Origin: Paraspadella gotoi
Taxonomy: Eukaryota > Animalia > Chaetognatha
NCBI GenBank assembly: GCA_051294375.1
Contig: CM119267.1
Coordinates: 9,325,709 to 9,389,708, forward strand
Length of the DNA: 64,000 nt
Reading direction: 5' to 3'
Position 1 is the stretch's first letter. Every line of letters begins with the position of its first letter. Of this stretch, positions 710 to 58,631 are shown piece after piece. Made by a program: the position numbers and the translations under genes. The notes beneath the pieces were generated by a model. It did no database searches. It saw only the letters and a program-made list of their open reading frames with translations, and was not told where the DNA came from.

Positions 710-3289
710 ATGGCAGCAACTCCTCTCTGTGTCCTTCCCCCCACGTCACCCACCAAGAGCTTGCCTTCTCCTGTTCCCAAAATGAACCTCGACACCAACG
801 TCTCCTCCGCTGCCTCCTTGACCCAAAACTCCGGATCGCTCTCCTGTCTGGACGCGCCATCTTCGCCGGGTCGCGATTTCGCCTCGCCCCACCCAATGAA
901 TCTGGACACTCCCCACCTCTTTCTTACTTGCGGCATTTGCCGCGAATATTTTAAGGACGACCCAAAGCTTCTTTCGTGCCTCCACTCGTTCTGCGAGTCT
1001 TGCCTCCAATCTACGATGCTCGAGGGATCCCTGTCGCTGTCGTGCGCAACCTGTAAGGTTCAGTCCATTATACCGCCATCGGGCATTTCCGGTTTGCAGA
1101 CAAATTTTTACGCCGTTGATCTTCGGCGCATCCTCGACGAGGCCCGTCATTGCGCCGGGTGCGTCGTGGGCAGCGCTACTCCCGCATCTTACCGTTGCAC
1201 GGAATGCGGCCAGTCGCTTTGCAGCACCTGCTCTAAAACACATGCCTTGAAAGTTTCTGAGAATCAAGAGACTGGAGAATCGAAATCTCACAACGCCGTT
1301 GCTATTTGCAAATTGGCTATCGAGGAAGTCGTATCCAAGTTGGATGAAGAAACCGCGGTTTTTGCGACAAACTCAGATGCTCCGAGCGACATAGAAGACC
1401 CTCGGACGAATCGTCTCAAATGCCCGAGTCATAACTACGAAGAACTTTCCCTTTATTGCTCGACTTGCGAAACAGGAATATGTAGCGTGTGCGCTGACCG
1501 AGTGCACTTTGAACATGCGACAGAGACGATGAGTGACGCAATTGAGAAAGAGCGGGCAATGATGCGCGAAATGGCGAAGGCGGTGGACGCTCAGGTACCC
1601 CTCATCCGTGACACTATTGATCAAGTGAACCAGATGAAGAGTTCCCTCGCCGCCAATCTCTCCGAAGCCGAGAATAAGATTGAAGAAGCCTTCGACTCTG
1701 TTGTAAAATCCCTCAAAGAGAGACGCGACAAACTGCTGCGCGAAGCCACCGAAGCCCACGAGGCAAAGGAAAAAGTGCTTAAAGCTCAACGCGACGCTTT
1801 AGAAGCTAAATTGGCTCGCATGCTGAGTTGCTGCGAACTGACGATGTTCACACTTGAGAACGGATCCGACGCGGAAATTCTGTTGCTCCACAAACAGCTT
1901 GCCGATACCATGGACGAGTTGGCCTCTTTGGACGTCAATTTCACGCCAGAAGAGAATTACTTTCTCGGTTTTTCCCCAGGAGATTTGCCAAAGATGCGCC
2001 ATAAGTTGTCGAAAGCCGGCTGCGTCGTGAGTAATTCGTGCATCGCCCACGAGACAGTCGCAACTGGCGAGGGGCTCAAACAGTGCGTCCGCGGCAAGGT
2101 ATCGGTCGTCATCGTCACCACAAAGAACCATCAGGGCGAACTGGTTACTAGTGGGAACGCCCAATTTGAAACCTACCTCCAAAACTCCATGGGAAAAAGA
2201 ATAATCCCGGAAATATGCGACAACCAAAACGGAACTTATGATTTAGGCTATTTGGTCAATGAAGCCGGGAGCTATGTCTTTGTCATTAAACTCTACGGAC
2301 ACCATATTAAAGGTTCCCCCTTTAAACTACGAGCCTTATCCTCCGATCAACCAAAGCCCCCGGCGTCGCCCTCGCCTATTAAGTCGGCGGTGAGACAGCG
2401 GGCCATACGACGACCCCTGAGCGCTGCCTTCGTCGACCAACGAAAGAGCGACCCGGTAGAGGACGATCTCATCTTTCGCGTCGGCGTCAAGGGACGCAAC
2501 AAATCTGAGTTTACTAGCCCCCAGGGTCTTTGTGCCGCGCCCAACTCGCGGATTCTGGTTTCCGATGCCACTAATCAAAACGTGCAAGTGTTTACGAACT
2601 CTGGCGACTACAGACTAAAGTTTGGAATTCGCGGCCGTCAACCGGGTCAGTTCCAGCGACCCACGGACGTTGCTGTGACCCTTCAAGGGAATTTTTTAGT
2701 ATCAGATCACGACAACAAGTGGATAAGCATTCACGCCCCAGACGGAAAGTTCCTCAATCGGATCGGCGTCGGCAAGCTTCTCGGACCCAAGGGCATCGCC
2801 GTCGACTCCAATGGCCACGTCATTGTCGTCGATAACAAAGCCAACTCCATATTTGTCTTTCAGTCCAACGGGAAAATGCTATTAAAGTTCGGAAGTCGAG
2901 GAACTGCCGACGAGCAGCTGAACGGCCCTTATTTTGTCACCGTGAACGCACAGGACGAGATCGTAGTCTCGGATTTTCACAACCACCGCGTCAAAGTGTT
3001 CGACTCCCAAGGAGCCTTTCGCTTCGCTTTTGGATCACAGGGCGAAGGCAACGGTCAATTCAACGCCCCGACGGGCGTCGCGGTCGACGCCGTCGGCAAC
3101 ATCGTTGTGGCGGATTGGGGTAACAGCAGAATCCAATTATTCGACAAGACCGGGTCATTTTTGAGCTTCGTCAACACGGAGGGAGATCCTTTGTACGGAC
3201 CACAGGCTCTTTGTATGACCACGGACGGCCACATTGTCGTGGCCGATACAGGAAACCATTGCTTTAAAGTTTATCGATATTTACAATAG
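710..3289 (+). CDS. TRIM2/3: Tripartite motif TRIM2/TRIM3-like protein (RING, two B-boxes, coiled coil, filamin, NHL repeats), intronless
   Basis: 859-aa ORF with RING CGIC...LSCLHSFCESC...CATC, B-boxes, filamin repeat DNQNGTY...HIKGSPF and NHL repeats ending GNHCFKVYRYLQ, as in TRIM2/3. The start could be Met 710 or 782. Confidence 0.93.
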   Translation: MAATPLCVLPPTSPTKSLPSPVPKMNLDTNVSSAASLTQNSGSLSCLDAPSSPGRDFASPHPMNLDTPHLFLTCGICREYFKDDPKLLSCLHSFCESCLQSTMLEGSLSLSCATCKVQSIIPPSGISGLQTNFYAVDLRRILDEARHCAGCVVGSATPASYRCTECGQSLCSTCSKTHALKVSENQETGESKSHNAVAICKLAIEEVVSKLDEETAVFATNSDAPSDIEDPRTNRLKCPSHNYEELSLYCSTCETGICSVCADRVHFEHATETMSDAIEKERAMMREMAKAVDAQVPLIRDTIDQVNQMKSSLAANLSEAENKIEEAFDSVVKSLKERRDKLLREATEAHEAKEKVLKAQRDALEAKLARMLSCCELTMFTLENGSDAEILLLHKQLADTMDELASLDVNFTPEENYFLGFSPGDLPKMRHKLSKAGCVVSNSCIAHETVATGEGLKQCVRGKVSVVIVTTKNHQGELVTSGNAQFETYLQNSMGKRIIPEICDNQNGTYDLGYLVNEAGSYVFVIKLYGHHIKGSPFKLRALSSDQPKPPASPSPIKSAVRQRAIRRPLSAAFVDQRKSDPVEDDLIFRVGVKGRNKSEFTSPQGLCAAPNSRILVSDATNQNVQVFTNSGDYRLKFGIRGRQPGQFQRPTDVAVTLQGNFLVSDHDNKWISIHAPDGKFLNRIGVGKLLGPKGIAVDSNGHVIVVDNKANSIFVFQSNGKMLLKFGSRGTADEQLNGPYFVTVNAQDEIVVSDFHNHRVKVFDSQGAFRFAFGSQGEGNGQFNAPTGVAVDAVGNIVVADWGNSRIQLFDKTGSFLSFVNTEGDPLYGPQALCMTTDGHIVVADTGNHCFKVYRYLQ

Positions 3290-3573
3290 TCACCAAAGCA
3301 GAAATTCTTTCAATTTTCGTATTTCAGAAATAATTTGATTCTCGTTTACTAAGAATAACAGCCATTAGTTTTAACTGAAGATGTAACAGAATATTATATT
3401 AGTACTTAATGGGGTTTGATAACCGCTAGGTCTAAAATCTCTTGAGCGTTTAAGAATTTTTGTGTGAAATTTAGAAATTTTATTTTTAAACTTTAATTTT
3501 GACCCATTATGGCTTTAAGCTGGTTTGGAAACTTGCTACATACGGGGGGTTACCATAAAAAACCTAGGTTTAT

Positions 3574-4599: not shown

Positions 4600-6220
4600 A
4601 TGGCAACAATTTTGATCTCTAAATATTTGGGTCCATCGCATTTGTGTGGATTCGACAAGTACAAATACAGTTCGATTGACAATTCGCCTATTTCGGTATA
4701 CATCACTCACCCGTTTTGGAACCGTTGCGTTGAGGTACAACCAATTTAATTTTTCTGTCTCGATTAAACTTTTGTGACATGAAATCTTTTGAATGTATTT
4801 CTTAGCTATGTCCGCGCTGGTTGGCCCCCAATCTGATGACGTTTTTGGGCTTTTTGCTTTTGGTGGCGAATTTTGTCATCCTATCTTTTTACGATCCTCA
4901 TTTCTATGCGTCTTCCGGAGCCAAAGCTAACGCATACTCAATTCCGACCTGGGTTTGGTGGTTTTGTGCTGCCAGTCAGTTTCTCGCCCACACCCTCGAC
5001 GGATGTGACGGCAAACAGGTAAAACAAAACAAAAAGTTACTTCATTTTTTCCTAAAACAACTTACCAGCTTAAAGACGCCATAACTCACATTACCATTCA
5101 CCAGGCTCGCCGCACGGGATCGTCTACTCCATTGGGGGAGTTGTTTGACCACGGTTTGGACTCGTGGGCGGCGCTCTTTATGCCCATCGCACTTTACTCG
5201 GTTTTTGGTCGCGCGACCGACGTCTCCGTTTCGCCGCTTCGATTTTACTTCGTCGTCCTCGGCGTATTCCTCCAGTTTTTCATATCTCATTGGGAAAAGT
5301 TAGTTCGTTTAAAGATCGTTATATAATTTATATAATGTATTATTTATAAGATTTTGTGATTATTTGCTGGAAGGATATGGCATGAGATTGTAGTAAATAT
5401 TTTATACAATACGGACGTTTTTGTATTAATTTAGGTACAACACCGGTGTTCTTTTTCTACCTTGGGGCTACGACGCCAGTCAGATCGCCTTGACACTCGT
5501 CTATGTAGGAACGGCCTGGTTCGGGGTCGATACCTTCCTTCGCCCCACACCTGTTGGTGGTTTATCCTTCCCTCACTTGGCCGAGTTTTTTTTTCACTTT
5601 TCTGCTTTCGGCATGACCGTACCGATGAGTCTTTACAATCTGTACTGGTCTTGGCGACGCGGCCAAATTGAGAACTCCTTCTGGCGAGCTAACATTCCGT
5701 GGTTTCCCATTTTCTGGCTATTTTTTTTGACAACCGTCTGGGTCATTCACTCTCCTACAGATATACTCAATTCCCAGCCGAGGTAAAATTTTAACCGGCG
5801 TTCTACGAAGGCCAAACAATTGCAAGACAGATTTCGTCGCTTTATTCAGATTGGTTTACTGGATGGTGGGAACCGTGTTTTCGAACATCACTTGCCGATT
5901 GATCGTCGCCCAGATGTCGAGCACTGATGCTCCGTGGTTCAACACTATGCTTATTCCTCTCACTGTTTTGGTCGTCTCTATTTTTTTCCCCAATGGCAAG
6001 GTAAAAAGAGACATCAATTTTTTATTGGTTTAGTTATTTAATTAATTTTTTTTAACCTGCAATTATGCAGACTATGGAACCATACTACTTAATTGGATAC
6101 ACTGTCATCGCAACTTTGGCACATATTCACTACGGCGTCATGATTGTTGTGCAAATGAGTGATCACTTAAATATTCATACGTTTTCATTAAAAATTAGGG
6201 CAAAAGAGAAATCTAATTGA
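4600..6220 (+). CDS. SELENOI: Ethanolaminephosphotransferase 1 (EPT1/SELENOI, CDP-alcohol phosphotransferase), 6 exons
   Basis: Spliced reading gives GFDKYKYSSID..., APNLMTFLG, HTLDGCDGKQ|ARRTGSSTPLGELFDHGLDSW, SHWEK|YNTGVLFLPWGYDASQ and HIHYGV...FSL. Five GT-AG introns. Confidence 0.92.
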
Positions 6221-7247: not shown

Positions 7248-8342
7248 ATGGAGAAGTACGTAATTCTTGGGCGGATTGGGGAAGGAGCCCACGGGATAGT
7301 CTTCAAAGCGAAGAACATCGAAACCGGATCCCTCGTCGCTCTAAAAAAAGTAGCTTTGCGTCGTTTGGAAGATGGCATTCCTAACACGGCGTTGCGGGAG
7401 ATCAAGGCTCTTCAAGAAATTGCCGAAAACCCTTACATCGTCCACCTGCACGAGGTGTTTCCCCATGGTACGGGCTTCGTTCTCGCTTTCGACTACATGT
7501 TGTCCGATCTTTCCGAGGTCATACGCAATTCTGAGCGACCTCTTACCGAGGCACAGATTAAGTCGTACATGCTCATGCTTCTGAAAGGGGTAGCCTATTG
7601 CCACGAAATCGGCATCATGCACCGTGACCTGAAGCCGGCGAATTTGTTAATTTCTTCCACGGGCCACCTCAAGATCGCAGACTTCGGACTCGCCCGAGTA
7701 TTTTCCAACGACAAAGAGCGGCTCTACTCCCATCAGGTAGCCACGCGCTGGTACCGTTCCCCTGAACTTCTCTACGGCGCTCGCAAGTATGACGAGGGAG
7801 TCGATCTCTGGGCAATCGGCTGCATCTTTGCGGAACTTCTCAACAATTCTCCCCTTTTTCCCGGCGAGAATGACATCGAACAGTTGTGCTGCGTCCTGCG
7901 GATGCTCGGCACGCCCACCGAACAGACGTGGCCAGGGATGAACGAACTGCCCGATTACAACAAAATTACCTTTCCGGAAAATCCACCCGTTCCTTTTGAG
8001 GAGATACTCCCGGACGCCTCCCACGAGGCCATTGACCTATTGGAACGGTTTTTGGTCTACGCCTCCGAACGTCGCGTCTCGGCGAAAAAGGCGCTGCTTC
8101 ATCCCTATTTTTTCACGGAACCCCTACCGGCGCATCATTCGGATTTGCCCATCCCGCAGAGGAACCGCACTGAACGTCAACGGGCGGAACGTGGTTGCAG
8201 GCGATTTTATGCCGAATCCCTCGACTCTGTGCTTGTCAACCCGGAGCTTATTGCTCCACACGTGCCTTACGCGGCTACAAGCGCCAAGGATACGACGCGG
8301 CGTCCTCTCTACGACGAAGTAGAGGGAGAAAAGAAGAAATGA
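7248..8342 (+). CDS. CDK20: Cyclin-dependent kinase 20 (CCRK), intronless
   Basis: GEGAHGIV, IPNTALREIKALQE, HRDLKPANLL, DFGLARVF, YSHQVATRWYRSPELLYGA. Confidence 0.95.
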   Translation: MEKYVILGRIGEGAHGIVFKAKNIETGSLVALKKVALRRLEDGIPNTALREIKALQEIAENPYIVHLHEVFPHGTGFVLAFDYMLSDLSEVIRNSERPLTEAQIKSYMLMLLKGVAYCHEIGIMHRDLKPANLLISSTGHLKIADFGLARVFSNDKERLYSHQVATRWYRSPELLYGARKYDEGVDLWAIGCIFAELLNNSPLFPGENDIEQLCCVLRMLGTPTEQTWPGMNELPDYNKITFPENPPVPFEEILPDASHEAIDLLERFLVYASERRVSAKKALLHPYFFTEPLPAHHSDLPIPQRNRTERQRAERGCRRFYAESLDSVLVNPELIAPHVPYAATSAKDTTRRPLYDEVEGEKKK

Positions 8343-8526: not shown

Positions 8527-9202
8527 ATGGAAAGCTCGAACTCGACGATTGTAAGTCAGAAAGATGAAGAGACCGAAGTTTTGCCCAAGAAGCGCAGATC
8601 CGCCTTCGCGCCGGGCAGGAAATCATTGATCGAGGGCGTCGGTAAGGATCATGGGGTTGTGGGAAATAACGCGCTGAATACGGAGTGAGTCTTTTCTTCC
8701 TCCAGATGAAGACGAAAGTTCCAGCGATTCCAACGAAGAAGAAACCCGCGAGAAGTTGACCCTTCTTTACCAAGTCATTTCCGAACACAAAAAGGAGCAA
8801 GCCGACTGGCTCTCACTTATGGACGCGGAGAAGAGGCTCACAGACGAGAAAGTCACCTCCGAGGAAGACAACGTCGTCATTTTTAAAAAAGATGACGAAC
8901 CTGAAGGACTTCCGGTTAAATATTACAAGGCCATATTAAAGAGTAAAAATTTTCGAAGGGAGCACTGGGCGGCCTTGGAAACCACGCGGGCAGAACTAGC
9001 CGATCTTAAAAAAAACGTGGAAAATGATTTGATTCTTTTCGAAGATATTGTCGATAGATATGGAAACTATGTCGACCAACAGTGTGCTGAAGCTGCCCAT
9101 CGATTGGCTGGCGCGTACGACGCCGTTGCCGACGTTCTTACTGTTCAAAACGATTCCGGAATTAACATTGATTCGAATATCGATCCCGAGTGTCCTGCAT
9201 AG
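8527..9202 (+). CDS. Divergent coiled-coil protein resembling kinetochore Mis12-complex subunit DSN1, 2 exons (intron 8642-8705)
   Basis: The GT-AG intron joins two ORFs in frame. KKRRSAFAPGRKSL resembles the DSN1 RRxS...RKSL basic motif and EHKKEQADWLSLM resembles the DSN1 E-x-x-x-W motif, followed by helical heptads. Confidence 0.45.
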
Positions 9203-9487: not shown

Positions 9488-12400
9488 ATGTCTTTTAATC
9501 TTCTGCCCCACGAAAGGAGCCAATTCGCTTCTAAAGAATATTGGGATGAATTTTTCAAAAAGCGTGGCGACGAAGCATTCGAATGGTACGGTAGTTTGTA
9601 CTATGTATTTTGTCGAGTTATGTCTCCTTCACATTTCCCCATTACTTTTCCCCAGGTACGGCGAATACCCTCAACTCTGTGGCATTCTCCATAAATACAT
9701 GAAGCCAACCGATGCCATTCTGAATATAGGGTGCGGGAACTCGCGCCTCTCCGCCGAGATTTACGATCTAGGGATCGAAAACATTGTCAACGTCGACATC
9801 AGCGAAGTTGTCGTCGCCAGGATGCGCGAGGTAAACAAGAATCGCGTCAATATGAAATGGGAGGTTGGCGATGCCACTCGTCTCGACGCCCACATCGACG
9901 AATCTTTCGGCGTCGTCGTAGACAAAGGGACCCTCGACGCGCTTTTCGCCGATGAGGAAGCCGCCACCCTTGAAGCGGTGGATCGAATGCTCGGCGAAGT
10001 CTCTCGACTGCTCAAGTTCGGCGGCCGATATATTTGCCTCACGCTGGCGCAAGACTTTATCGTTAATCGGTTGCTGAGCTGGTTTGAACGGGACGGCGGC
10101 TGGATCATCCGAGTTCACAGAGTATTCGACATGGATGCTGGTTAGCGATTCTCTGCTCTTCTTTTTTTTTGCGGGGGGCCTCTTTTTAAAAGTTTTTGCC
10201 GGTGGGCAGACGAAGCGTCTCACCACATGCCGCTCTTTGCCGTCGTATGCACCAAATTCAAAAAAGGAGGAAACTGCCTCACACTCGTCGAAATCTCGGT
10301 CTCCTCGACGAAGCTGGAACGCGTCGAGTCTGTCGAGGTGGCTAAAAATGCCATCGCGTCTGCTCAGGTGCGGAAGAGAGAAATTGGTACAACCGATTAT
10401 AAATATTATCCTGTGGCGGTATACTCACACCGCCTCACGTCCACCATCGTTCAGCCAAATCCATTGGCTCAGAGGGGGAACACACCATCCCAGGCGTAGT
10501 GTTCCATCCACAGTCCTAATGACTTCCCTCTGCGTTGGCAAAGCGAGACCGTCCTAGGGTAACCGCGCCAGTGACTGGAGGCGTCACTGAGGGTCGGAAG
10601 CCCCCAAAGCCAACAGTGAGATGCCCCATCCCAATGGGCATCACAGGCAACCCGGCTGTTGCCATAAGTGGTGAGCCCTACTATCGAACACGCAACCTTC
10701 TCAGGGTACGCTACGACAAACGCCTATGCCCTGCCGACTTTGGGTACGCTACAACAAATGCCTATGCCCCTGGGGTACGCTATGACAAACGCCTATGCCC
10801 CCACAACTCGCGCTCTCTCTCTCCCACTATGGTGACAGTTTTGTCAGACACTTCTCAGGCTTGAGGAACCTGAGTAATGTCTTGGTCCGGGGATCCTGTG
10901 GCGGTATACTCACACCGCCTCACGTCCACCATCGTTCAGCCAAATCCATTGGCTCAGAGGGGGAACACACCATCCCAGGCGTAGTGTTCCATCCACAGTC
11001 CTAACGACTTCCCTCTGCGTTGGCAAAGCGAGACCGTCCTAGGGTAACCGCGCCAGTGACTGGAGGCGTCACTGAGGGTCGGAAGCCCCCAAAGCCAATG
11101 GGCATCACAGGCAACCCGGCTGTTGCCATAATCCATTCATTTAATAAATAAGTTATCTTTCCTCTGACTTTGGACAGGCTTTGATGGTTTAAGGCCTTAC
11201 AAGATGATCACATAGCAGGTCCCTGCCAGCTTTTTATCAACTCTCTCTGTCTCGTTATTCACTCCAAAAGAATCTGGCTAGTGGCTATATAACAGAAATA
11301 GAGATAGAATTGTTATCACTCACTAATTACTACTTATATAAATTTGATGTCTTTTTAGGAATTTGCCGTCGTTCGTCATCGCCTATCGACGAAGGAACAC
11401 CGGGGTGACGAGATCCCGATATACCTCTACGATGAGGTCAATCTAACGTCCCCTCGATACGAGATATTCGTCGTCGATGTCGACGAAACAAAGATTGCGA
11501 TGAAGAAATCCTTTGCTGTCTTCATCGTTCCCGACGGGAGAGAAACCGAATGGCTCTTTAACTGCAAAGAGGTGACTGACTATATATTATATAATTTTGT
11601 TATGTCCGTCCGGTATTCATCAATAATAGGGTGGCCAATTCTTGCTCGGGACGAATCATATATATAATTCGTTTTAATCGAAAATGCTCCAATTATCAAG
11701 GGTCGAAGTCAGTTGGCGTCGTCTGCGGGATTCTCTCGACTTCTCGTCGTCTTGTTAAACCGAAACCACGTTTATGGCGACATGGAACAAGTCAAGTCTG
11801 ACTTGTCATCCAAGGTTTTAGAACTCGCACCTCCAAATAAGAGCAATGAAGAAGTGCCTTTTCTCAGGTTGTAACATTTTTCTGTCATTTTTATCGGACT
11901 TTATTCAACTATTGTTCAATATTTTTTTTTAGTATCGGTGATGATATTGGCAAGAGAACAGTCTTGCAGACTGGAGAGAGCGAATTGTCTGGACCGTTTG
12001 TTGTCGAAGAGGTGGAAGTAGCGGACGGTTCGATCTTAAGGTATGCTGCTGATTCTCGGTATGAAATACAACCGCTACACTACCGTAAAATCGATACTTT
12101 AACTAGAACGATATCTATGATTTGTCTTTTCTAAATTTCCAGGCGACTAATATTCTTAAGGAATCCAAATGTTATTCAGTCCGAGGTTAATGTTGTCACC
12201 GAAACCGTGACCAAGAAGAAAAAGAAAAAGACGATTTCAAAGACAAAGAAAGTCGTTTCGAACTCTTTATCTTTCGAATATTCTCGGTTTATGATGGCTT
12301 CCTTGTCGTTCCTCCCGCGATTCGAAGAACTCCTAAAGACAAAGATGGAGGTCAACAAAAAAAAAAACACACCCAAAAAAGTTTTGAAAATGAAATAAAA

Positions 12401-13211
12401 AATTACGACCAATTCCGATCCCGACTTATCTAAACCAATTATTTTCATGACGAAAAACATTTTTCAGACTTTGATCCTCGGCCTCGGCGGAGGTTGCCTC
12501 ACCTCTTTCTTACATCGTCGCTTTCCGAGAATGTACCTGGACGCCGTGGAGATCGACCCGGCGGTCGTCGACGTCGCCATCAAACACTTCGGCCTTCAGA
12601 CTGATGAACGTCTTCGTACTCACGTCGCCGACGGGTGAATAATGCAGGAATTCATCTTTTGCGATGCTTTTCATTTTTTTCCTTCGATATGTATGGTTTG
12701 TCTCGTTTTCAGGTTCCAGTTTTTAAACGACCTTGCAGAGGAAAAGCGCTACCACGTTATCGTACTCGACTGCGACAACAAAGACCTTTCATGTGGAATA
12801 AGTTGCCCTCCGCCTGGTAATTTGTTTTGGATTTTATCTTTTTTCCCCCCATTTTTTTTCTTATCTTCTCTTTGTTCATTTATTTTTCCGTTCTTTTTTC
12901 ACTGGGTAGAACTTATAACCCCCGATTGGCTCGACCTCGTCCTCTCACGACTTTACGAGGACGGTCTTTTCATGGTCAACCTGGTCTGCCGCGACGCCAA
13001 ACTGAGAAGTGAACTTATAAACAAACTCCAGAGCTTTTTTGGAAACCGTATGTGGATCAAAAAGGTGGAAGATCAGGTTAACGAAGTTTTGATCTGCTAC
13101 AAGTCGGCGGAGGGCGACGACCGCGATTACGACGATTACGACGCTGAAAGGAGAAAGTACCTTGACTCGCTTCCCACCGAAGAGCTCAAAGCTTTTATGA
13201 TGGGCCCTTGA
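9488..13211 (+). CDS. METTL13: eEF1A lysine and N-terminal methyltransferase METTL13, about 10 exons
   Basis: MSFNLLP...KEYWDEFF...FEWYGEY, ILNIGCGNSRLS, DKGTLDAL, FIVPDGRETEWLF, and C-terminal LILGLGGG...VEIDP...HVADG. GT-AG introns. Confidence 0.93.
10412..11130 (+). mobile_element. Miniature non-autonomous LTR retrotransposon (TRIM-type) in METTL13 intron 3
   Basis: Near-identical direct repeats at 10412-10666 and 10897-11130 (second has a 21-nt deletion), termini tgtggc...gccata, PBS-like TGGTGAGCCC 2 nt after the first LTR, and ATCC on both outer flanks. Confidence 0.8.
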
Positions 13212-29216: not shown

Positions 29217-29717
29217 GTCATGGCGACGAACTTCTTAATTAATTTTCGTAGAAATCAGTATGTAATAGAAGTCCCTTCATTAGGTTTTGCGATTTTTCTA
29301 GTTTTATGAACTTTAAGTTTTAACGATAGATTTGTATCGTTAGTGTATGCCTTTTCACCTTCAACTCGCGAATAAATGAACTTTTTATATATTAATTAAG
29401 CCAATCACCTTTGATTTGATAGACCTTCTTATAGAATTATCAAGTTTGTCAGTTTCGCAGGTTTTTTTGTATAACTTGTATTATTCGTAGAAATAGTGTT
29501 ATTGTCTTCATGTTTGTAATTTATCGAGTTTTCTCTGGTCCTTTCTCTGTCGTCCTCAGGCTTAGTTAAAGATTATGACAGAGACTTCTTAAATGCACAT
29601 CGTATCATTGGTCGATCTTCTTCTGTCTCTAACTCTTCTTCCTTCCGCTTTGTCCTGGGTCGTGGAACTGGTGGTAATTCTCTCGACGCTCTTGGCAGCG
29701 GCTTCGTTGCCTTGGTC

Positions 29718-47150: not shown

Positions 47151-48832
47151 ATGCCTTTTATCGCCGAAGGCGAAGGTGCCGAGTCTCAAAGTGTTAAAGG
47201 CGATGTTGATGGAGAAGTCGCCGGCCCGCGTGACGATGAAGCGACAGACCCGGACGCCTGGGATCAGGCATCTGACGGCCATTTCCGCTCCAACGACGAC
47301 GATTTTATTACCGGTCCCGGAAGGCAGTTTCTTGACGAGAGGACGAGGTCTCAACTTTCCCGTCCTCAAATTACCATACAGGTGTCTGATCAAGAGGTGT
47401 TTTGATCAAGAGGTGTTTTGACCCTTGTTTCGACGTTTGTCTCGTCTTACAGGAAATACCTCTTCAATGCGATCGGCGCGCCTTCCGTCAAACCTGCGAA
47501 GGCTTTGGCAGAGTTCTCGATTTCAAAATGATGAATAGTCACAATGAGAAATTTCAACACGCCTTTGTCACCTATGATACCATGGACTCGGCCCACGCTG
47601 CTGCCAAGGAATTGCGAATGGTCGTGCTGGGAGAAACCCCCCTGAAAGTCGGCATCCCGAAGACTAAGGAGCAGAGAGATAAAGAGCGAGAAGAAAGGCG
47701 AAAGGAAAACGAGCTTTACCGGGATTGTGGCTTCTCGAACGTGTTGGACGCCCCCAGCGCCAACGTTAAGAGATGCGATCACTGCGGACGCGACGAGGCC
47801 AACTTGAAAAGGTTACCCATAAGGTATTGCACCGGATGCTGGGTGGCCGCTTATTGCTCCGTCGAGTGTCAGAGGGAGGAGTTTTCCAAGCACAAGCGAA
47901 CCTGCACGGCCATGGTTGAAAAAAGGAAGAAAAAGAAATTGGCGAAGAAAGCGGCGGCTGCGGCCCAAGAGTCAGAGGCGGCGGCTGCTGCTGGTGCTTT
48001 CGATAAAGTGAATAAGCCAGTGACTTCTGAGGCGAAACCTTTAGAAACTCCAGACGTTTCTAAGTTGTTCATTTCGGAGGCGAAAATCGTCTTCAAGGAT
48101 CTGCTTGCCAACGAAGTTAATTTTGGCATGATTTTGTCCGTGGTCGACCCGGGAGACTTTTGCGTGGCACCCGACGATGACGATCCTCTGGCTTACCAAC
48201 TTCTCAATTCCTACTTGGCAGCTTTCATGGAGCAGCAGCAAATCACCCAGTTATTGGAGAATCCAAAAGTTGGGGACGCGGTGGTGGCAAAGATCCCGAG
48301 GGTGGACAACGACGAAGACGAAGATTCTTACCAACGCGCCGTCGTGGTGCATGTCTACGAATCTCCGACGGAGCCCGAACCGGCGGCCCTGTTAGAGTTG
48401 TGGTTTTGCGACGCCGGAGTAGCGGCGAGCGACGTTCCCGTCTCTTCCGTCGTTTCTTTGTCTGACTTTCGCCACTTTCTGCGTCGCAACAACGTCGACG
48501 TCTCTTCGGCGACCCTGCCCGCTCGTTTGATTCGCTGCCATCTTTGCGCCATTTGTCCCGACGACGGAGAGTCGCGTCCCATCGTGCCCGGACGCGAAGG
48601 GCTGTTCGAAGAGGACCAAGAAGACCACCACGAAGACCCTGATGCGACTCCCGAATGGGACGAAGTCGCCGTCGCCTTTTTGAAGAAGTTGATCTTCACG
48701 AGAATGGAGGTTCGGGTGATCAGCAAGGATGAAAACGTCGTACCCAAGTTCGGAGTCACGATGAGTAAGAAGGAAATTGGAGTCGGAGATTCTCTTGTCG
48801 ACGTCGGGTTGGCCGATTTTGACAACCATTGA
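47151..48832 (+). CDS. RRM + MYND + extended Tudor protein (Vreteno/Veneno-like architecture), 2 exons
   Basis: RRM across intron 47382-47452 (HAFVTY...LKVG), MYND CDHC...CTGC..AAYCSVECQ...HKRTC, and extended Tudor VVDPGDFCV...PKVGDAVVAK...YQRAVV...FCDAG...LPARLIRCHL...LVDVGLA. Confidence 0.8.
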
Positions 48833-49135: not shown

Positions 49136-50338
49136 ATGGGCACTGAAATCGATGTCTATGACCAAGATGGATTTGAGTATGGGGGATCCGAAGAATCATA
49201 TTCAGAAGCTAACGAACTCAATTACCTTGTAACGACTTCCCGCCACGAGTTTTTCGGAGAAGGAGATTCGTCGCCAAAACCCAGGACGATGTCGGTTGCA
49301 AATGTTGATTCAGAAAAAGAATCGACGGTGGTAGACGTTTCGCCTGTTTGGCTCGATCAAGTTAGTTCTTTAGTAGGCGGTGCTGAAAAATTCAATTTCA
49401 ATAATTGTCATAATAACAATCATGATGATGACAGTAATAATAATATTGTCTTAGCTGGTGAAGGTTTGCAAAGCCGTTGTTGTAAAGCCCCTGTCCGTCG
49501 ACCAATTTTGGTTCAAACTCGATTAAAGTTCTCGGACAATGAGCTTAAATTCGTACGCGACGATACGCACAAAACTTTTGGCAGACGTTTTTCCGCTGAA
49601 GAGGATGCGACGTTGGTGCAAGCAGTTCAGTTTTTTGGTATTAATTTTCAACGCATTTGTGAGACTTACTCGTCCGTCTTTAAACCTCGGGGCAGAGACG
49701 CTGTATCTTTGAAAAATCGATGGTATAAACTTAGAAGAGAAGAATCGGAAAAGACGCAACAAGAAGAGGAAATTCCTTGGTCAGAAAAGGAAGAGTTGGC
49801 TCTCTTAAATAGTTTGAAGAAACTGAAAAGTCTTGGATTAAGGTCTGTAAGTTGGATATGGATACGCGCCGATAATCCCGAGGATTTTAAACACCGATCG
49901 CCCAAATCTATTCATGATCATTGGAAAGAAATGTTGCTCAAAAACAAATATTCGAGATCGCAAAAACATGGCTTACCCAATTATCAGACATCGAAAAAGA
50001 ATTTGGAGATTGATTTTTCTCAAAACATGAAAGCCGTTGAAACCGCGCCGAAACTAAACTCTGATGTGAAGACAAACAAGTCAGAAAATCAAAGAAAGAA
50101 ACTTGACGAAAAGGCTCTTAATCCTCAGAGTCGAGGAGTTTTGAAAGCTTGGAAAGAAGAGGAAGAGGATGCTCTTTTCCAGGGTGTCAAGTCCCAAAAG
50201 AAAATTGGCTGTTATAAAGTCAGTTGGAACAAGATCCTTGCTGATAATCCGGTTGTTTTTCGACATAGAACAGCTACTTCCCTTAAGCTTCACTGGTTGT
50301 ATACGCGTAAAAGGCGCCAAATGGAAGCCACGTTTTGA
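49136..50338 (+). CDS. Protein with three Myb/SANT (telobox-like) repeats, intronless
   Basis: FSAEEDATL...SLKNRW, WSEKEELAL...RSPKSIHDHW, WKEEEEDALFQGV...RTATSLKLHW. Confidence 0.8.
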   Translation: MGTEIDVYDQDGFEYGGSEESYSEANELNYLVTTSRHEFFGEGDSSPKPRTMSVANVDSEKESTVVDVSPVWLDQVSSLVGGAEKFNFNNCHNNNHDDDSNNNIVLAGEGLQSRCCKAPVRRPILVQTRLKFSDNELKFVRDDTHKTFGRRFSAEEDATLVQAVQFFGINFQRICETYSSVFKPRGRDAVSLKNRWYKLRREESEKTQQEEEIPWSEKEELALLNSLKKLKSLGLRSVSWIWIRADNPEDFKHRSPKSIHDHWKEMLLKNKYSRSQKHGLPNYQTSKKNLEIDFSQNMKAVETAPKLNSDVKTNKSENQRKKLDEKALNPQSRGVLKAWKEEEEDALFQGVKSQKKIGCYKVSWNKILADNPVVFRHRTATSLKLHWLYTRKRRQMEATF

Positions 50339-50496: not shown

Positions 50497-52830
50497 ATGA
50501 CCCGAATTTCGGTTATACAAATCGCTTTTAATTTCGGAAAACTTTTAAAAAATCGCTTTGGAATTGTGACTCGAGCAAATCTTCATTCTACTCATTACTT
50601 CCTTCGGAATGTCGGCACATCCACGGTTCCAGCCCCGACAGAAGATGCACCGCGGGTCGACGAGCAGTTTTCCTTCCACCTCAACCGCTACACAAATCGC
50701 ACTCACACTTGCGCCCAGTTGCGAATAGATCATGTCGGCGTCCGCGTTCGCATTTGCGGCTGGTTGCAGTACAAACGTCTCAACAAATTCCTTGTGCTCA
50801 AAGACGCTTACGGTGCCGTGCAAGTGCTCCTCAAAGAAGGTGACGTCTCCGAAGAACTGCCTTTGGAGTCGGTCCTCGAAGTCGAGGGAGTGGTGCGAGC
50901 TCGACCCGCGACGATGCGCAACCCCGAGATGGCCACGGGGGATGTGGAAATCGAGGTTGTGCGTCTCCACATACTCAACGCCTGTCGACAAAAACTTCCT
51001 TTTTTCTCGACGTCGCCACTGAAGCACGGCGAGGCGTTCGAGAGACTCCGCCTGGAGCATCGATACCTTGATCTGCGAAACGACCGTCTGCAGGTAGACC
51101 TTCTGACGTCAACGAATGACGCGAATCGATTCTGTCACGTGTCTTCGTTAACAGGAAAATCTTCGTTTTCGTTCCAGTCTCGTGATGCGCATGCGTCAGT
51201 TTCTACACGATCATAGTGGATTCGTCGAGGTCGAAACCCCAACTCTTTTTCGACGAACACCTGGTAAACGGCGTTTTTAAATTTTACGACAACAGTTATA
51301 AAATATCATTCTCTTATTGTAAGTTCCTTCCTTATATTATCTGTTATCAGGAGGTGCGCGCGAGTTTATTGTGCCCACGGAAGTTCCAGGTCACTTTTTC
51401 TGTTTACCTCAAAGTCCTCAACAATTCAAGCAACTTCTCATGGTCGGATCGATCGATCGATATTTTCAAATAGCACGTTGCTACAGGGACGAAGGTAATG
51501 TAAGGCACTATAATGGTTGTAGTACTGTTAAGCATTTTTAACTATTTTTGAATCGAGCTTTGAAGATAAATGCAACCTCATTCTGAACTTTCTGAACTTT
51601 CCTAAGGAACAATGAGACATCGACAACCGGAATTCACTCAACTCGACCTTGAAATGTCGTTTACTGATCGTGAAGGCGTCAAGTCTTTGGTGGAAGAGCT
51701 CCTCGCTCATTCTTTGCCCCCTTCCATCTCCCCGCCCTCGCTACCTTTTCCCACCATGACCTACGGCGAAGCCATGAGTCGCTATGGCGTCGATAAACCT
51801 GACCTCCGTTTCCATATTGAGATTCGCGACGTGACTGAGATTCTCGGCCGATCCGGTGCCGACGTCTTGACGACGGGTCTTGATATGGGTTTTAGGATCA
51901 AGTGCCTCCGTATAGAGAATGGCGCCACGTCTTTGTCTAAGTCGGAATGGAAGGAGCTTTTGAAAGAAGAGGATGGGGAGAACGAGAACTTGGTGACTAT
52001 TCGGATTAAAAATGACGGAAGTTGGAAAACAAACTCTTACGCGAGATTCATTCACGAAAACAATCGCGAGATGTTGACGAAGCATTTGGCTCTAGTCCCC
52101 GGCGACGTCGTCGTCTTGGGCTTTGGCGAAAACATTTCTCTTTGCAAAACTCTTGGCAAGTTGCGTCTTAGGATCGCCGAGGCGATGAGAGTCAAAGGTC
52201 GGCCTCTTTATGGGGACAGGGATTTTCGCTGGCTATGGGTCGAAGATTTTCCCCTCTTCCAGCCCATCAACGACGATGATGATCACCTATGCTTAGACTC
52301 CCGGCGTCGTGGTCTCAAGTCCGCCCATCATCCTTTCTCGGCGCCGCATCCCGACGACGAGCGGCTCCTCTTTTCGGAACCGCTCCTTTGTCGCGGCCTC
52401 CACTACGATCTCGTCCTAAACGGAACCGAAGTTGGTGGAGGATCGATTCGTATTCACGACGCGGATGTGCAGCGACGCGTGCTGGAGGAGATCCTGGGCG
52501 TTGAATGCGAGAAACTCGACCATCTGCTAAAGGCTCTTGATTCGGGTTGTCCGCCGCACGGAGGAATAGCTCTTGGTAAAAAGATCCATGATGTTCTCTC
52601 ACGTTTTGATATTCCTAAGTTTGTAGTTTTGTAATTTTAATGTTTATATGTGCCTCTTGACACCAGGCTTGGATCGCCTTGTCGCCGTCTTGGTTGGCGC
52701 AAACTCTGTGCGAGACGTCATCGCCTTTCCAAAATCCAATGACGTTAAAGATTTAATGTCAAAGTCGCCGGCAGTGGTTGACGAGGAGGAACTCAAATAT
52801 TACAATATCCAAATAATTAATGACGGCTGA
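50497..52830 (+). CDS. DARS2: Mitochondrial aspartyl-tRNA synthetase, 5 exons
   Basis: [27 protein letters not shown]...[59 protein letters not shown]. Confidence 0.95.
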
Positions 52831-52950
52831 AGCTGACAGCTGAGCTTTCTTGTTTTGTTTGACTGTTCAGTGTTCACTTTTTCTTTAGTTCGAGGCTACC
52901 ACAATTACAAGATTATGTTAAAAAGACAGCGAATTTAAAGACGATGGACG

Positions 52951-54333
52951 ATGTTACCATTAGCCTCCAAATCGACAACTGTATTGTCGAAGCTGTCCTC
53001 CGCGTCGCGTGCTATCCCCTCTTGCCCTCCGAGGACGTCCCTTTCGTCCTCCGTTCCAGTCAAAACAACCCTGGCGGACGTTTTTCAGACGAGCGGCTCG
53101 TTGACGAGTCTCGACGACTCCAACCTGCTGGCGGACGAGGGGGGAGACGTCGACGCCGCGCTGCTCTGCGACTCGGTCGGCGGTCGACTTACCTTTCAGC
53201 CTTTCGAAACTTTCCGCGACTTTGACGCGCTCTCTAACGAGGACGTGAAAAAAGATGAGCGTGAGGAGGTTTCGCCGAAGACGGCGTTGGAATCTTGGGA
53301 AGAAACGTGTCACGGTTTTTCGATCGGAGAATCTTCGTCCGGGGGTCGAACGCCGACGAATTCGAATCAATCTTCTCTTTTGGATGGCTCCGATTCGAGT
53401 AATCTCTCTCGGCCCAATCGGCTATCCCCAGGGCCATCTCGGGTGCTCCCCGATTCCCGTCTGCCTCATCCCGTGGCCTTCGATTTGGTCGACGCTCGGA
53501 TTTTTCGTGAGGGACCGACCAACCACCGCTTCGTGCTCTACACCATCGCCGTCCGCCCGCTTTTGCCCGCAAAATCTCACGATCGCGGTGCCCTAACACT
53601 GGAAAAACGTTTTTCAGACTTTGATAGACTCCACGCGGCCCTTAAGCGGCGCGTGCCTGTCGCAGTTGCTGACGTCAACCTTCCACCCAAGCGCCTCTTC
53701 AAAAACTTTGATGCCCGCACCATCGCCGAGCGAAGTCGAGCCTTCGAGCAATATCTCGGCCATGTGTGCGCCATCGACGCCGTTCGCGCCACCTCCGAAT
53801 ATTCGAACTTCTTCTACGGCGCCGATCTCTTTGGTGGAATGGACTTTTTGTCGCGCGGTCTCCTCGTGGAGGCTCTTCCGTCCCTTCACCGCTCCTTCAC
53901 CATGGCGTCGCTCGTGGTCGGCGCCGGACACCGCCACGCCTTTCTCATTCTTTGCTGCTTGACGGCGTGTTACGACGCTCTCGACGAAGACGCTGCCGCC
54001 CTCGAACACGCCCTCGCCGCCGTCGAGTGGCTGCGAGGCTTCGGAGACGAAACCGCCGTCGACGGCGAAATCTCGCCTTGGGAACGACGGAAGCGAAAAG
54101 GGAAAAACGACCCCGAGAGGGAAGACGATTCTTGCGTCTTCCACGACGGATTTACTTACAACATTCTCACTGTCCCCCTGATCGAAAATGCTATCAGCCT
54201 CAGCTGGAAAATGGGAAGGGACAAGAGAGACTTGGAAAAATCGTTGAAAAAAATTCGAGAGCTCATCGGTTTCGTCAATGACAAGAAGACGCTGATCGAA
54301 GCCTTGAGGAATTTAAGGGATGAATTCCACTAA
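52951..54333 (+). CDS. SNX21: Sorting nexin 20/21-like (PX + PXB), intronless
   Basis: FVLYTIAV...EKRFSDFDRLH...LPPKRLFKNFDARTIAERSRAFEQYL, then a helical PXB-like region with WKMGRDK. Confidence 0.8.
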   Translation: MLPLASKSTTVLSKLSSASRAIPSCPPRTSLSSSVPVKTTLADVFQTSGSLTSLDDSNLLADEGGDVDAALLCDSVGGRLTFQPFETFRDFDALSNEDVKKDEREEVSPKTALESWEETCHGFSIGESSSGGRTPTNSNQSSLLDGSDSSNLSRPNRLSPGPSRVLPDSRLPHPVAFDLVDARIFREGPTNHRFVLYTIAVRPLLPAKSHDRGALTLEKRFSDFDRLHAALKRRVPVAVADVNLPPKRLFKNFDARTIAERSRAFEQYLGHVCAIDAVRATSEYSNFFYGADLFGGMDFLSRGLLVEALPSLHRSFTMASLVVGAGHRHAFLILCCLTACYDALDEDAAALEHALAAVEWLRGFGDETAVDGEISPWERRKRKGKNDPEREDDSCVFHDGFTYNILTVPLIENAISLSWKMGRDKRDLEKSLKKIRELIGFVNDKKTLIEALRNLRDEFH

Positions 54334-54644
54334 CTTCTTTTTTTTTTTTCTAAAGCCAACGCATCAACTCTTAGATTTTTCCTTATCAAAAAAATTTACA
54401 TTGAAATTATTATTATTTATCATTTCTATATAAATGTTTTCGTGACCAATATTTTTGATAACACTTTGATCTTTTTACATCTTTTTAGCAACAAACATCG
54501 CGTTTCTTGGTGTTTTTTAATTTTTGGTATGCTTATATAATTACCGTTTACTAAAGCACAAATTTCGACTACATAACCAGCGTTTTATTTATTGAATCGT
54601 CGATTCTGAGATCTTTTTAACCGTGAATCCTATTCTTTTAGATA

Positions 54645-56574
54645 ATGAGCGAGGTCTCTTCCAGTGGAGATGGGTTGAACGACGTCCTTAACGGCGTCGC
54701 CGCCGCCGCCGCCGCCGAATCCGATATTTCCAAGCCTCCTACTGAAGAACTTCCCAAACTGCTTGTGCACAAAAGCCTCGGCGACACCCTCTCCGTCGTC
54801 GACGAGCAGATTAAAAAGATTCCGTCTCCAATCTCCAGCGAGATTTCCTCGTCTTCCTCTCCCACGGTCGTCCCTCGCAACGCAGACTTCGACTCGATCG
54901 CCGAGGAGACGCACCAAGCCTCAGAATACTTCCCCGGCACGGTGGACGAGTCCGACACCGACGACGATTCTGACCAAGAGGACGATGTTACGCTACCCGA
55001 AGAAATCCCTTTCGACTACGACGCCCTCGAACGACGGATGGAATATTTAAACTCTCTCGACTCTATCGAGCTGCCTAAGACTGTCGCTCGGCTAAAGACA
55101 AAGAGAGGAACGAGAATATTTCTAGTCGGGACCGGTGAGCGACTTTGTTTGAGAAAAACGTCTCGCCTTTTTCTAATTTCTTTTTCACATTCTCTTCACT
55201 CTCCTCCAGCCCATTTCAGCGAAGAGTCTCAAGAGGATGTTTCGACGACGATCCGGGCCGTCCGCCCGGATGTCATCATGGTGGAGCTCTGCTCTCAGCG
55301 GGAGCACGTTCTTAACCTGGACGAAGAGACGGTTCTGCGTGAGTCACAGAATCTCAACGCGGAGAAAGTCTTCGAATTCATCCAATCCTCGGGACTCGTT
55401 CGAGTGAGAAACGAAGCGTCGTCGGGTTTGTTTTTAAAAAACGAATTATTTATTGACGGTATTGTGTTTTTAAGGGGTTGACGTACGTCCTCCTCCTCAG
55501 TCTCTCCGCTCACGTCACGAAACAGTTAGGAATGGCTCCCGGAGGTAAGTCGCGACCATTTAAATTACTTTTCCCTTACCCAAATTTTTATTTAAAATTA
55601 TTTTTTTGAAACATTTTTCAGGAGAATTCCGTCGAGCTTTTCGCGAACTTAAAGAATTGAGACGGACGAAGAAGACAAATCTGTACTTAGGCGATCGCCC
55701 TGTGCAAGTCACCCTCAAAAGAGCTTTGAGCGCGCTATCATTTTTTCAGGTTCGTGTTTATCTTTTAGCCCTTTAGCATCATTAGTCCTGGCAGTCAATG
55801 GGAAAATGACTTATTTTTTTACTATTTGCTTCGCAATCCGAGAATCACGGGCGATACTTTCATTACCAAATGATCCTTCTTTCTTCGAACTCGCAGAAAA
55901 TTCGCCTCGCTTGGTCTATCATGATGGACGGCTTCAAGGTGACGAAAGAAGACGTGGAAAACATGAAAGAAAAGGACATGCTCCATGCCTTGATGTCGGA
56001 AATGGCGGCCGAATATCCTTTGCTTACCAAGGTTAGCTCGCTTCAAATCAATTGTTATATATATATATATAATATTAAATGTTCTGAGTAGATGATAAAA
56101 ATGGAAAAATGAGACAACTCGCTAAATCCTCCTTTTAGAGAAATTAACAATTTTTCCCCCCGACTACCTCAAGGTGTTCGTAAAAGAGCGCGACCTTTGG
56201 CTCGTCCAGTCGCTCGTCCACACTGAGTTGTTGGCAGCAAAAACGTTGGAAAGTCCTCTTCCCGGAGTCGTTGTCGCCGTGGTGGGAATCGGCCATCAGC
56301 AAGGGATCGTCGATGAGTGGAACAAGATTCAAGATGAAAACCAAACTGTACGAAGATGACTGGATCATTGATAATAAAGTTATTATGGTTTAGTCTTAAC
56401 AAAATGTTTTTAATTCTTTGATCGCAGCTCGAAGAGGGCGCGCGTATTATCACCGAACTTCTCGTGATCCCCGAAACCTCGATGACTTCGAAGATTGTCA
56501 AGCTGGGATTCAAGGCAGCCTTCGTCACCCTAGCCCTCTGGGGTTGCGTTAGGATTGTCAAGGCCTTCGCTTGA
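54645..56574 (+). CDS. TRABD: TraB domain-containing protein, 7 exons
   Basis: IFLVGTAHFSEESQEDV...RPDVIMVELC, LGMAPGGEFRRAF, LGDRPVQVTLKRAL, FVKERD, VVAVVGIGHQQGI, C-terminal hydrophobic tail. Confidence 0.93.
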
Positions 56575-57173
56575 GAACTTTAACGGGGTGTGAGATAAAA
56601 GCTGATACTAGTCCGCCGTTATAATACAAACAATTGTTATGAAGTCGTTATTTTATAGAATATATGTAATTCTTGTTACGGCGAAGATTTTATGAAAATA
56701 AAGGAACTTTTCTACATGGAATTTTTTTTTCATCATTTAGGATTATGAATTGTGTCGAAGCTAGTCAAAATTTATAGGAGGTGAACTAACAAGGAATTCA
56801 ATAGGAAGTCCAAAACAAAAGGGATCTACGGCTACAATCCGATAGCTCTAAAACGGCTTCTATTCCAAGTGATTGAATGAAATGGAATCATTATAAAGTC
56901 TCGAAATTAATTCTAAGAAACTTTCGATAAAATTGATAGCTGACTAGTAAAAATGATAATAACCTAGTATGCTAAGTTACGTAACGAATCTTAATCCTCG
57001 TGCATCTTGAACGCACGCGCTTGCTGGCTTTCCTTCCTTCGCTCACTTACGCTTCCTCCTCTTCCTCGTCTCGCCTCCATATGGAGACGCAAAACATTGC
57101 GTCGTCGAGAAAACCCAGACGGAATCGTAATTATTGTCTCTTGTCAAGTTTCCGACGAGATCCGGCCCTCAAG

Positions 57174-58631
57174 ATGACCGCTTCGAAGGCTTTCGTGCTG
57201 CTATTGTCGTTGTTGTCGACGTCCTTTGCGAATTTTTACCCGAGATTGGGCGATGACTTTTCCTATGAAAGCCCTGACTACGGCGGGGACTCTAATGGTC
57301 GTGACGACGAGCTTTTCCAGGACATCGTGGCCAGGTTTGCTCTTCTGTATGATTTAATTCTTTATTGAATTTGGGAATTCTTGGTCTTTAAATATATATA
57401 TAATTATATATGGATAGCACAAAACTCATGTCTGATGAATAAAAACTAAAAACTAAAATAAAAACTACTAAGCGGTTAAGTTAAGAACCATTGTCAAATG
57501 TCCATTCACTCAACTCCACTCGCAGAAAAAAATTCAAATTGGTTCACAGAATCGTTAGATGTTGAGACAGTAAATGCTAAATTAGACCTTAAGGTGACTC
57601 ATATTAATGAGTCCTTTTTCCTATAGTTAACCGCTGGTTCAATCGGAAATGTATTGGAAAGTATTGAAGTATTGAAAAGTATTGGAAATAACCCAACGTA
57701 AGTTTGAGGGACGTAAGAAAAAACGTTTCCACTGCCGACAGGATGGCCGACTACATCGACATGGAGAGCCTCTTGGCTCAGCCATCTGCCGGCGATCCCG
57801 TCATCCCCGACGCCACCCTGCGAGACACCGAGGACATCCACCACGCCCACCTCTTTGGACCCTCGGAAAACGACGGCTTCCAGTACATGCAGGGCGGTGC
57901 GGGAGAAGGGGTTCAGTGGCTCAAACCCGAAGGATCGATTCTTAACAAGCAGGTCCAAACTCCAAAGGGAAATTATTGGATGGACAGTGGGCACACACAA
58001 AAAAAATATAGTTTTGTTCGAGATGAAATCGTAAATCTAATCTTTGGCTTTGCTTCCGCCGGACGCAGGAAGTAAAAACGGACAAGTTTTTGCCCGCTTA
58101 TTGCGATCCCCCGAATCCTTGCCCAATTGGCTTCACTTCCGATGACGGCTGCGATCCGGCACCGGGATCGAAGTTCACGGCCGAATACAGCAAAGTTTAT
58201 CAAGCGTCGCAAGTACGAAAATCTTTCTCGGCTCCTTTTATTTTAAACTGAGTTTAAACTTTCCCTTTCGCCAATAACTTTCTGATTTTTCCGCCAGGAG
58301 TGTCAATGCGACTCAGAACACAACTACGGTTGCGCCGATGGAGAGCGACGCGACGACGACGTCGGAAACTTGAAAGAAAATCTCAAAAATTTGGCAAAGA
58401 TGATGACCGAAGCGGAAAAAGAGCCCAAGGACACGAAGACGGGTCGGTGAAAAACAACTTTATTACTTAAAACGCTGAGGCGTTTTTGCTCCAGAGAATG
58501 ACAGAAACACAAATCATTATCCCACAGATGCTAACGAAACTGGTCACAATGGAAGTCGCCCTCCAAATCCTTATCTTGTGGGGGAACCTCTGAAGCGAGT
58601 CGCCAAAAAGGCTCCCATTTACAATATGTGA
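57174..58631 (+). CDS. SCG5: Neuroendocrine protein 7B2 (secretogranin V), 5 exons
   Basis: Signal peptide, YMQGGAGEGVQWLKPEG, VKTDKFLPAYCDPPNPCPIG, NTAKF...CQCDSEH, NPYLVGEPLKRVAKKAP. AATAAA at ~58663. Confidence 0.93.

Follow-up and report, generated by a model that had tools for sequence, protein, structure and literature searches.

A one-strand run of 22 genes with an arrow-worm spliced leader: a candidate chain of long polycistronic units

Spliced leaders (SL) and one operon were established in chaetognaths (arrow worms), together with further clustered co-oriented genes (PMC2481426, PMC2566580; the articles cited in this text are quoted from excerpts), and one bacterial artificial chromosome with further closely clustered co-oriented genes was noted in 2008 (PMC2481426). 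In Paraspadella gotoi about half of the genes are reported to be trans-spliced and 18% to be operonic by a rule of less than 250 bp, with a longest operon of nine genes (PMC12460157), and the excerpts of PMC2481426 and PMC12460157 describe no position-specific leader in the phylum. Here we describe a window of 64,000 nt (the whole stretch of DNA that was analysed), where the + strand carries all 22 protein-coding genes, from the ATG at 710 to the stop at 58631, head-to-tail and unrelated to each other. RNA shows cis splicing and a leader at two of the predicted AG acceptors, and contigs run through most of the gaps. We suggest, with somewhat better than even confidence, that this cluster, most likely of a chaetognath, is a chain of few long leader-resolved polycistronic units and is not transcribed gene by gene. 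The mechanism is not new, trans-splicing and operons being already known in arrow worms; it is the length that is unusual.

With the described chaetognath operons the run shares the leader family (23 of 26 letters as in SL2.0) and the co-oriented, housekeeping-rich gene content; unlike them it includes 7B2 and TRIM2/3. In the RPS14-PCNA pair of Spadella cephaloptera 3 nt separate the upstream 3' end from the acceptor (PMC2481426), and a similar arrangement is suggested here at the SNX-TRABD and RDH-ZNF borders. The longest operon reported for P. gotoi has nine genes, with gene models less than 250 bp apart, against a run of 22 here, and the mean density in that genome is one gene per 11.6 kb against one per 2.6 kb in the run (PMC12460157).

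Among tunicates, Ciona intestinalis uses one leader pool for every position, lacks AAUAAA in 16 of 18 upstream cistrons (12 of 21 gaps here) and places the upstream 3' end at the acceptor, for which we have one suggestive case (PMC1488885); its operons differ in having mostly two genes and up to 6-7 (PMC7986045), the leader is another one, and several gaps here keep AAUAAA. Oikopleura dioica likewise packs housekeeping and germline genes of unrelated functions densely head-to-tail, a nine-gene operon being cited and free insertion of genes into operons being assumed (PMC11067885); unlike here, it belongs to another phylum, has another leader, and its intercistronic spacers are 23-30 nt (PMC1488885). 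Searches of the open-licence literature listed neither a longer animal operon nor this cluster.

The sequence-only reading, made before this analysis, had placed the run closer to kinetoplastid directional clusters, which are also named in PMC1488885 and PMC7986045, than to animal operons. This is not supported: the leader is of chaetognath type, operons have already been described from the phylum, and cis introns abound in these genes. In kinetoplastid clusters, as a rule, the genes are nearly without cis introns, every mRNA bears the leader and the whole genome is so arranged. The likeness lies in a long stretch of unrelated genes on one strand, in a leader that resolves them and in 3' ends probably tied to the downstream acceptor; the difference, in the 50 cis introns of 21 gene models here and in the fact that chaetognaths trans-splice about half of their genes.

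Leader and contigs in RNA

RNA contigs of one public sequencing run (X1) were mapped over 21800-33700 and 41900-59000, that is, over 29 kb of the 58 kb, 15 of the 21 intergenic gaps and 12 of the 16 AGs which the sequence-only reading had listed as unpaired splice acceptors ahead of start codons. X1 contains 0.75 of the sequence words of 28000-33000, and we take it for RNA because 21 of the 29 joints listed are GT..AG introns matching our exon models (of the others, one is a GC-AG intron and the remainder are repeat artefacts). On the TRABD contig, 26 non-genomic letters, TATTGAGTACATTCAATTTGTTTAAA, immediately precede 54642 and so follow the listed AG 54641. The POLR3G contig opens with the final 9 letters of this leader, which immediately precede 29560 and follow the listed AG 29559. 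The leader is thus visible at no fewer than two of the 12 mapped AGs, and among the matches listed none is visible at the other ten. Nine of the 12 lie inside continuous contig pieces, where a short leader tip would probably be lost in assembly cleaning, and AG 50496 is without listed cover. No cis joint ends at any of the 12 (joints listed: 14 of 14 in 21800-33700 and 15 of 19 in 41900-59000). Trans-splicing at the listed AGs, as had been proposed, is demonstrated by the leader at two of 12 mapped sites, and the cis-intron alternative is left without support. That no donor is evident upstream was too strong a statement from sequence, as six gaps hold a strong GT (score 7.6-10.4; the median of true donors is 8.3), so that the unpaired status of the AGs required RNA, and it is the lack of a listed RNA joint at the 12 AGs that speaks for it.

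Compared with the chaetognath leaders in Table 3 of PMC2481426, the leader shares 23 of 26 letters with SL2.0 and 22 of 26 with SL4.2, its last 15 letters are those of SL2.0, and it is identical to none of the forms in that table. The same article, in the part quoted, finds chaetognath leaders without likeness to those of other phyla, and the acoel leader of PMC9911081, as excerpted, is unlike ours by eye. Judged by its letters, the leader is a member of the chaetognath SL family, and because of the match to SL2.0 the window is most likely that of an arrow worm. The leader sequence is absent from the window at up to 3 mismatches, and no SL RNA gene was found within the window; a 24-letter part had no match in metagenome contigs, a 14-letter part had none in a literature search, and a second run (X2; 7 records, depth below 4) gave nothing on the leader. 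The tails seen here, one of 26 nt and one of 9 nt, are what bears on the question of a leader dedicated to downstream genes, as the nematode SL2 type is.

Nine of the 15 mapped gaps lie within one spliced contig, two more are joined by contig overlaps of 30 nt (aldolase-PHRF1 and TFG-Nudix), and one is covered up to the AG. RDH, ZNF, ALKBH8 and RRM share one contig of 9441 nt, which by its length would reach about 900 nt into SLC16; one contig each unites POLR3G-aldolase, PHRF1-TFG, Nudix-MYND-Tudor-Myb and DARS2-SNX (the gene names are those of the list in the next section). The DARS2-SNX contig stops at 54642, one base past the acceptor of TRABD; in this one case the end may represent a fork between poly(A) tail and read-through, with the upstream 3' end at the acceptor. 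The RRM contig stops 77 nt short of AG 29559, with an AATAAA 188 nt upstream. Listed cover is lacking over 29483-29559 and about 50400-50547. From binned depth, for which two solutions fit, 7B2 RNA would begin at or before about 56746, near AG 56740. Introns of 122 and 248 nt have no cover in the depth bins.

In the chain which we propose, RNA polymerase II would transcribe through several genes, and the leader RNA would be trans-spliced to an unpaired AG ahead of each downstream gene and thus supply its cap. The upstream 3' end would be formed at or near that same AG, often without AAUAAA, as in RPS14-PCNA of Spadella and in Ciona, and any internal promoters would sit in the five roomiest gaps. 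Apart from the contigs through nine of the 15 mapped gaps, the chain is supported by acceptor scores enriched over shuffles and by the operons documented in the phylum.

Gene run, acceptors and candidate borders

The features of the run are the following.

710..3289, + strand: TRIM2/3-like RING-Bbox-filamin-NHL gene, intronless, first gene in the window
4600..6220, + strand: CEPT1-like CDP-alcohol phosphatidyltransferase, 6 exons, candidate acceptor AG 4587, weak Pfam match
7248..8342, + strand: CDK20, intronless, best predicted acceptor AG 7056
8527..9202, + strand: DSN1-like gene (a lead only), 2 exons, AG 8512
9488..13211, + strand: METTL13, 10 exons, AG 9416
13334..18897, + strand: SLC16/MCT-like transporter, 7 exons, one intron of 3958 nt; label taken over from the sequence-only reading, the Pfam search with fragments of two exons being without match
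19367..22265, + strand: RDH-like short-chain dehydrogenase, 3 exons, AG 19306; the preceding gap is a candidate promoter gap
22306..25233, + strand: C2H2/matrin-type zinc-finger gene (ZNF), intronless, AG 22294
25542..27609, + strand: ALKBH8, 3 exons, both introns RNA-supported, AG 25435
28101..29216, + strand: two-RRM protein (RRM), intronless, AATAAA at 29371
29558..29560, + strand: trans-splice acceptor, seen in RNA, where an X1 contig starts with the last 9 letters of the leader
29718..30661, + strand: POLR3G/Rpc31, 2 exons
31042..32706, + strand: fructose-bisphosphate aldolase, 7 exons, last intron GC-AG, AG 31006
33261..42444, + strand: PHRF1/SCAF11-like gene, multi-exon, ATG 33261, TAA 42444, RING and SCAF11-like C domains, AG 33019
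35281..35354, + strand: tRNA-Cys(GCA), within a PHRF1 intron on the same strand
42683..44046, + strand: TFG (PB1 domain), 2 exons, AG 42570, with a higher-scoring AG ending at 42681
44589..45723, + strand: Nudix-type gene (DUF4743), 3 exons, no good acceptor; the preceding gap is a candidate promoter gap
45872..46732, + strand: MYND-finger gene, intronless, AG 45839
47151..48832, + strand: RRM-MYND gene, 2 exons, AG 47128, with a presumably Tudor-like C-terminal part
49136..50338, + strand: Myb-domain gene, intronless, AG 49033
50497..52830, + strand: DARS2 (mitochondrial aspartyl-tRNA synthetase), 5 exons, AG 50496 adjoining the ATG
52951..54333, + strand: PX-domain sorting nexin (SNX), intronless, AG 52888
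54640..54642, + strand: trans-splice acceptor, seen in RNA, with the 26-nt leader before 54642
54645..56574, + strand: TRABD (TraB domain), 7 exons, six introns RNA-supported
57174..58631, + strand: neuroendocrine protein 7B2, 5 exons, candidate acceptor AG 56740, 43 nt after the AATAAA of TRABD

Open-frame exon models were made for 21 genes and contain 50 cis introns, while for PHRF1 only the two ends of the coding sequence were defined; seven of the 22 genes (TRIM, CDK20, ZNF, RRM, MYND, Myb, SNX) are intronless. Pfam agrees with the labels of the sequence-only reading in 18 of 22 cases at E<1e-5, the matches being weak for fragments of CEPT1 (E 0.01) and TRABD (E 0.007), and the DSN1-like label is an Atlas lead only (0.91; MIS13 in 66% of members). 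The co-orientation of 22 genes had been claimed earlier and holds over the whole of 710-58631. Its probability was given as 2^-21, which is arithmetically correct, but the underlying null ignores the operons known in the phylum; with the published operon counts of P. gotoi, and operons placed independently, 0.03-0.06 runs of 22 are expected per genome, and because of this a 22-gene run is still unusual. To the left the run may extend beyond the window, and to the right of 7B2 convergent candidate exons on the minus strand (about 59500-62050) seem to end it.

The seven short stop-to-ATG gaps that had been pointed out (40, 120, 122, 148, 158, 184 and 238 nt) have exactly these lengths; the other 14 measure 285-1310 nt, the median of all 21 is 311 nt, and 20 consecutive genes are separated by less than 600 nt. 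That the gaps are too short for a promoter thus applies to the seven and not to the 14. Seven of the 21 gaps are likewise shorter than the 250 bp of the published operon rule when measured from stop to ATG and not between true mRNA ends.

All 16 listed AGs are present, and 15 of them are YAG. The AG-free zone has a median length of 50 nt at the listed AGs and of 14 nt at the 315 other AGs of the gaps, a comparison which is no test, the listed AGs having been picked for that look. A smoothed acceptor model was trained on the 50 cis introns and applied to the best site per ATG against 300 dinucleotide shuffles: the summed best score of the 22 ATGs is 64.1, against 37.8 +/- 7.1 in shuffles (maximum 55.2). 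Taken singly, five of 22 genes reach p<=0.05, and Nudix has a best score of -0.1 (p=0.6). Behind the candidate acceptors there are upstream ATGs, two ahead of the SNX frame (52889-52950) and six ahead of 7B2 (56741-57173), which may mean lowered translation or the use of other acceptors.

Between the stop and the chosen AG, AATAAA or ATTAAA is absent in 12 of the 21 gaps and present in nine, a count that depends on the choice of AG and has no control set; in the METTL13-SLC16 gap, one of the 12, a signal sits just behind the chosen AG. In several gaps AAUAAA lies 43-190 nt ahead of the AG, and from the RDH stop to the ZNF acceptor AG 22294 there are 29 nt, almost all T-tract. Five gaps could offer room for a promoter: two of more than 1 kb at the left end and those before RDH, Nudix and 7B2. 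In the latter three AATAAA follows soon after the stop, free room is left, and the T-over-A skew is lost (uncorrected p=0.007 for SLC16-RDH and p<=0.0001 for TFG-Nudix and TRABD-7B2), the loss being significant in two of the three once 21 tests are corrected for. Neither promoter motifs nor the CpG ratio set any gaps of the run apart. Cutting at the five roomiest gaps yields blocks of 1, 1, 4, 8, 7 and 1 genes, of which CDK20-SLC16, RDH-TFG and Nudix-TRABD are the likely polycistronic ones. The contigs are compatible with the earlier proposal of a single very long polycistronic unit or a few of them; the split would leave at most eight genes per block, within the range already known.

Named relatives reach a best identity of 79% for CDK20 and 58% for TRIM2/3, and other relatives 85% and 77%. 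In a quick tree CDK20 belongs to Bilateria but to none of the sampled clades of ambulacrarians, chordates and lophotrochozoans. Xenoturbella bocki was rejected as a candidate source, since its 7B2 in the excerpt of PMC11521371 is unlike that of the window. A scan of 18 CDK20 loci found no homologue of the other 20 modelled genes, most of these loci being too short for gene order.

Chain, single unit or single genes

The chain of few units has to be weighed against what is seen in the same data. X1 is one run known by its contigs only, and a contig over two genes is no proof of a single transcript. The depth bin of a 407-nt intron keeps a small unexplained depth (76.9 vs 73.4) and the 7B2 contig continues at least 330 nt beyond its AATAAA, so that bridging of gaps can stem from read-through at a low level, from pre-mRNA or from DNA. 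The leader appears at only two of 12 mapped AGs, and the first five gaps (710-13334) lie outside the RNA mapping. Fourteen of 21 stop-to-ATG gaps exceed 250 nt, and the block borders, drawn from AATAAA, free room and loss of T-over-A skew, are candidates. Trans-splicing also serves single genes, as the figures of about half and 18% for P. gotoi, quoted from PMC12460157, imply, and the phylum is assigned by the leader, no chaetognath protein being among the named matches.

A larger reading would make the run one giant operon of 20-22 genes, from CDK20 or earlier to 7B2, with a single promoter region and all cistrons resolved by the leader. We regard it as unlikely. It draws on a contig chain from SLC16 to 7B2 without a hole of more than about 150 nt in the mapped parts, the unmapped middle of PHRF1 lying on one contig of 8958 nt that is found in both mapped stretches. 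Each candidate border is also covered by RNA: SLC16-RDH if one goes by the length of the contig, TFG-Nudix through the 30-nt overlap, and TRABD-7B2 except for a hole no longer than about 55 nt. Both the close spacing of 20 consecutive genes and the rarity of expected 22-gene runs agree with it. The poor acceptor of Nudix and the skew missing in two gaps fit it badly, 7B2 is neuroendocrine, a class reported in PMC12460157, as excerpted, to be depleted from chaetognath operons, and the longest animal operons reported in the excerpts have 6-9 genes. We may even suggest, as an unlikely reading, that one promoter region serves at least 20 genes with introns along about 50 kb, which would be over double the longest reported operon, and that many such chaetognath clusters exist and have been cut apart by the 250-bp rule; in this case the seven intronless genes would be late insertions which needed only an acceptor for expression.

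Conversely, the run might consist mostly of single trans-spliced genes with compact promoters and of few operons of 2-3 genes at gaps below 250 nt, which we also consider improbable. Under the 250-nt stop-to-ATG rule the run does come apart into 15 pieces, each with 1-3 genes; in P. gotoi the majority of trans-spliced genes is not assigned to operons in the quoted part of PMC12460157; and read-through into the outron of the next gene can yield bridging contigs. Yet the gaps include 3' untranslated regions (UTRs), so that the free room is far below the stop-to-ATG distance; a canonical poly(A) signal before the AG is missing in 12 of 21 gaps, and the SNX contig extends to the TRABD acceptor. 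Single genes would also leave 22 genes on one strand unexplained; for the co-orientation this reading has to assume a separate cause, for instance that overlapping antisense transcripts are avoided where genes are dense. It is very improbable, lastly, that there is no trans-splicing, with the AGs closing introns of the 5' UTR or arising by chance in T-rich 3' UTRs, and with the loose contig ends being assembly artefacts. The 17 of 22 best acceptors which singly fail to beat shuffles and the strong GT sites of six gaps would suit this, but the same non-genomic letters stand at two predicted AGs 25 kb apart and match a published leader, and the 12 mapped AGs have no listed cis joint.

Between these extremes, we prefer the chain of few leader-resolved units. 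Even the cautious split leaves adjacent blocks of eight and seven genes, near the published maximum of nine; the run beats this chaetognath record only if the links between blocks are co-transcribed. If it were one unit, the upper limit for animal operons would be reset, and it would become testable how an animal polymerase passes 20 poly(A) sites without terminating and by what means cistrons as disparate as aldolase, CDK20 and 7B2 are regulated without promoters of their own.

Other features of the window

The gap between the DSN1-like gene and METTL13 (9208-9400) is a mosaic, in which 51 nt have 94% identity with the stop region of TRIM (3274-3323) and about 150 nt have 72% identity with the 3' flank of CEPT1 (6505-6679). 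Going by these similarities, the mosaic suggests recent local shuffling, with genes perhaps inserted into the run. Intron loss or retro-insertion is possible for the intronless genes. In a relative of the close-relative clade (L006, 596-1051, one of the 18 CDK20 loci) the CDK20 frame breaks after about 70 residues in an intron-like manner, and a T/C-rich AG lies about 85 nt ahead of the CDK20 ATG. The DSN1-like kinetochore gene, if the lead is right, is notable since gnathiferans are reported in PMC12460157, as excerpted, to have lost CenH3 and CENP-T.

Several introns have a structure of their own. The 991-nt intron of METTL13 contains a perfect direct duplication of 206 nt (10408-10613 and 10893-11098), the 3958-nt intron of SLC16 (14533-18490) is AT-rich with duplicated ATTA-rich blocks, the 1795-nt intron of RDH holds a T/C-rich microsatellite (21055-21600), and the GC-AG intron of aldolase (32461-32535) is spliced out in RNA. 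The candidate minus-strand gene at about 59500-62050 is without a Pfam or PDB match; two of its candidate exons presumably resemble the C-terminus of a KdsC/CMAS-type HAD protein. At 59874-60870 there is a foldback element of about 1 kb, with arms of 107 nt that are 92% complementary and nested inner inverted repeats, which we take to be similar to a miniature inverted-repeat transposable element (MITE-like).

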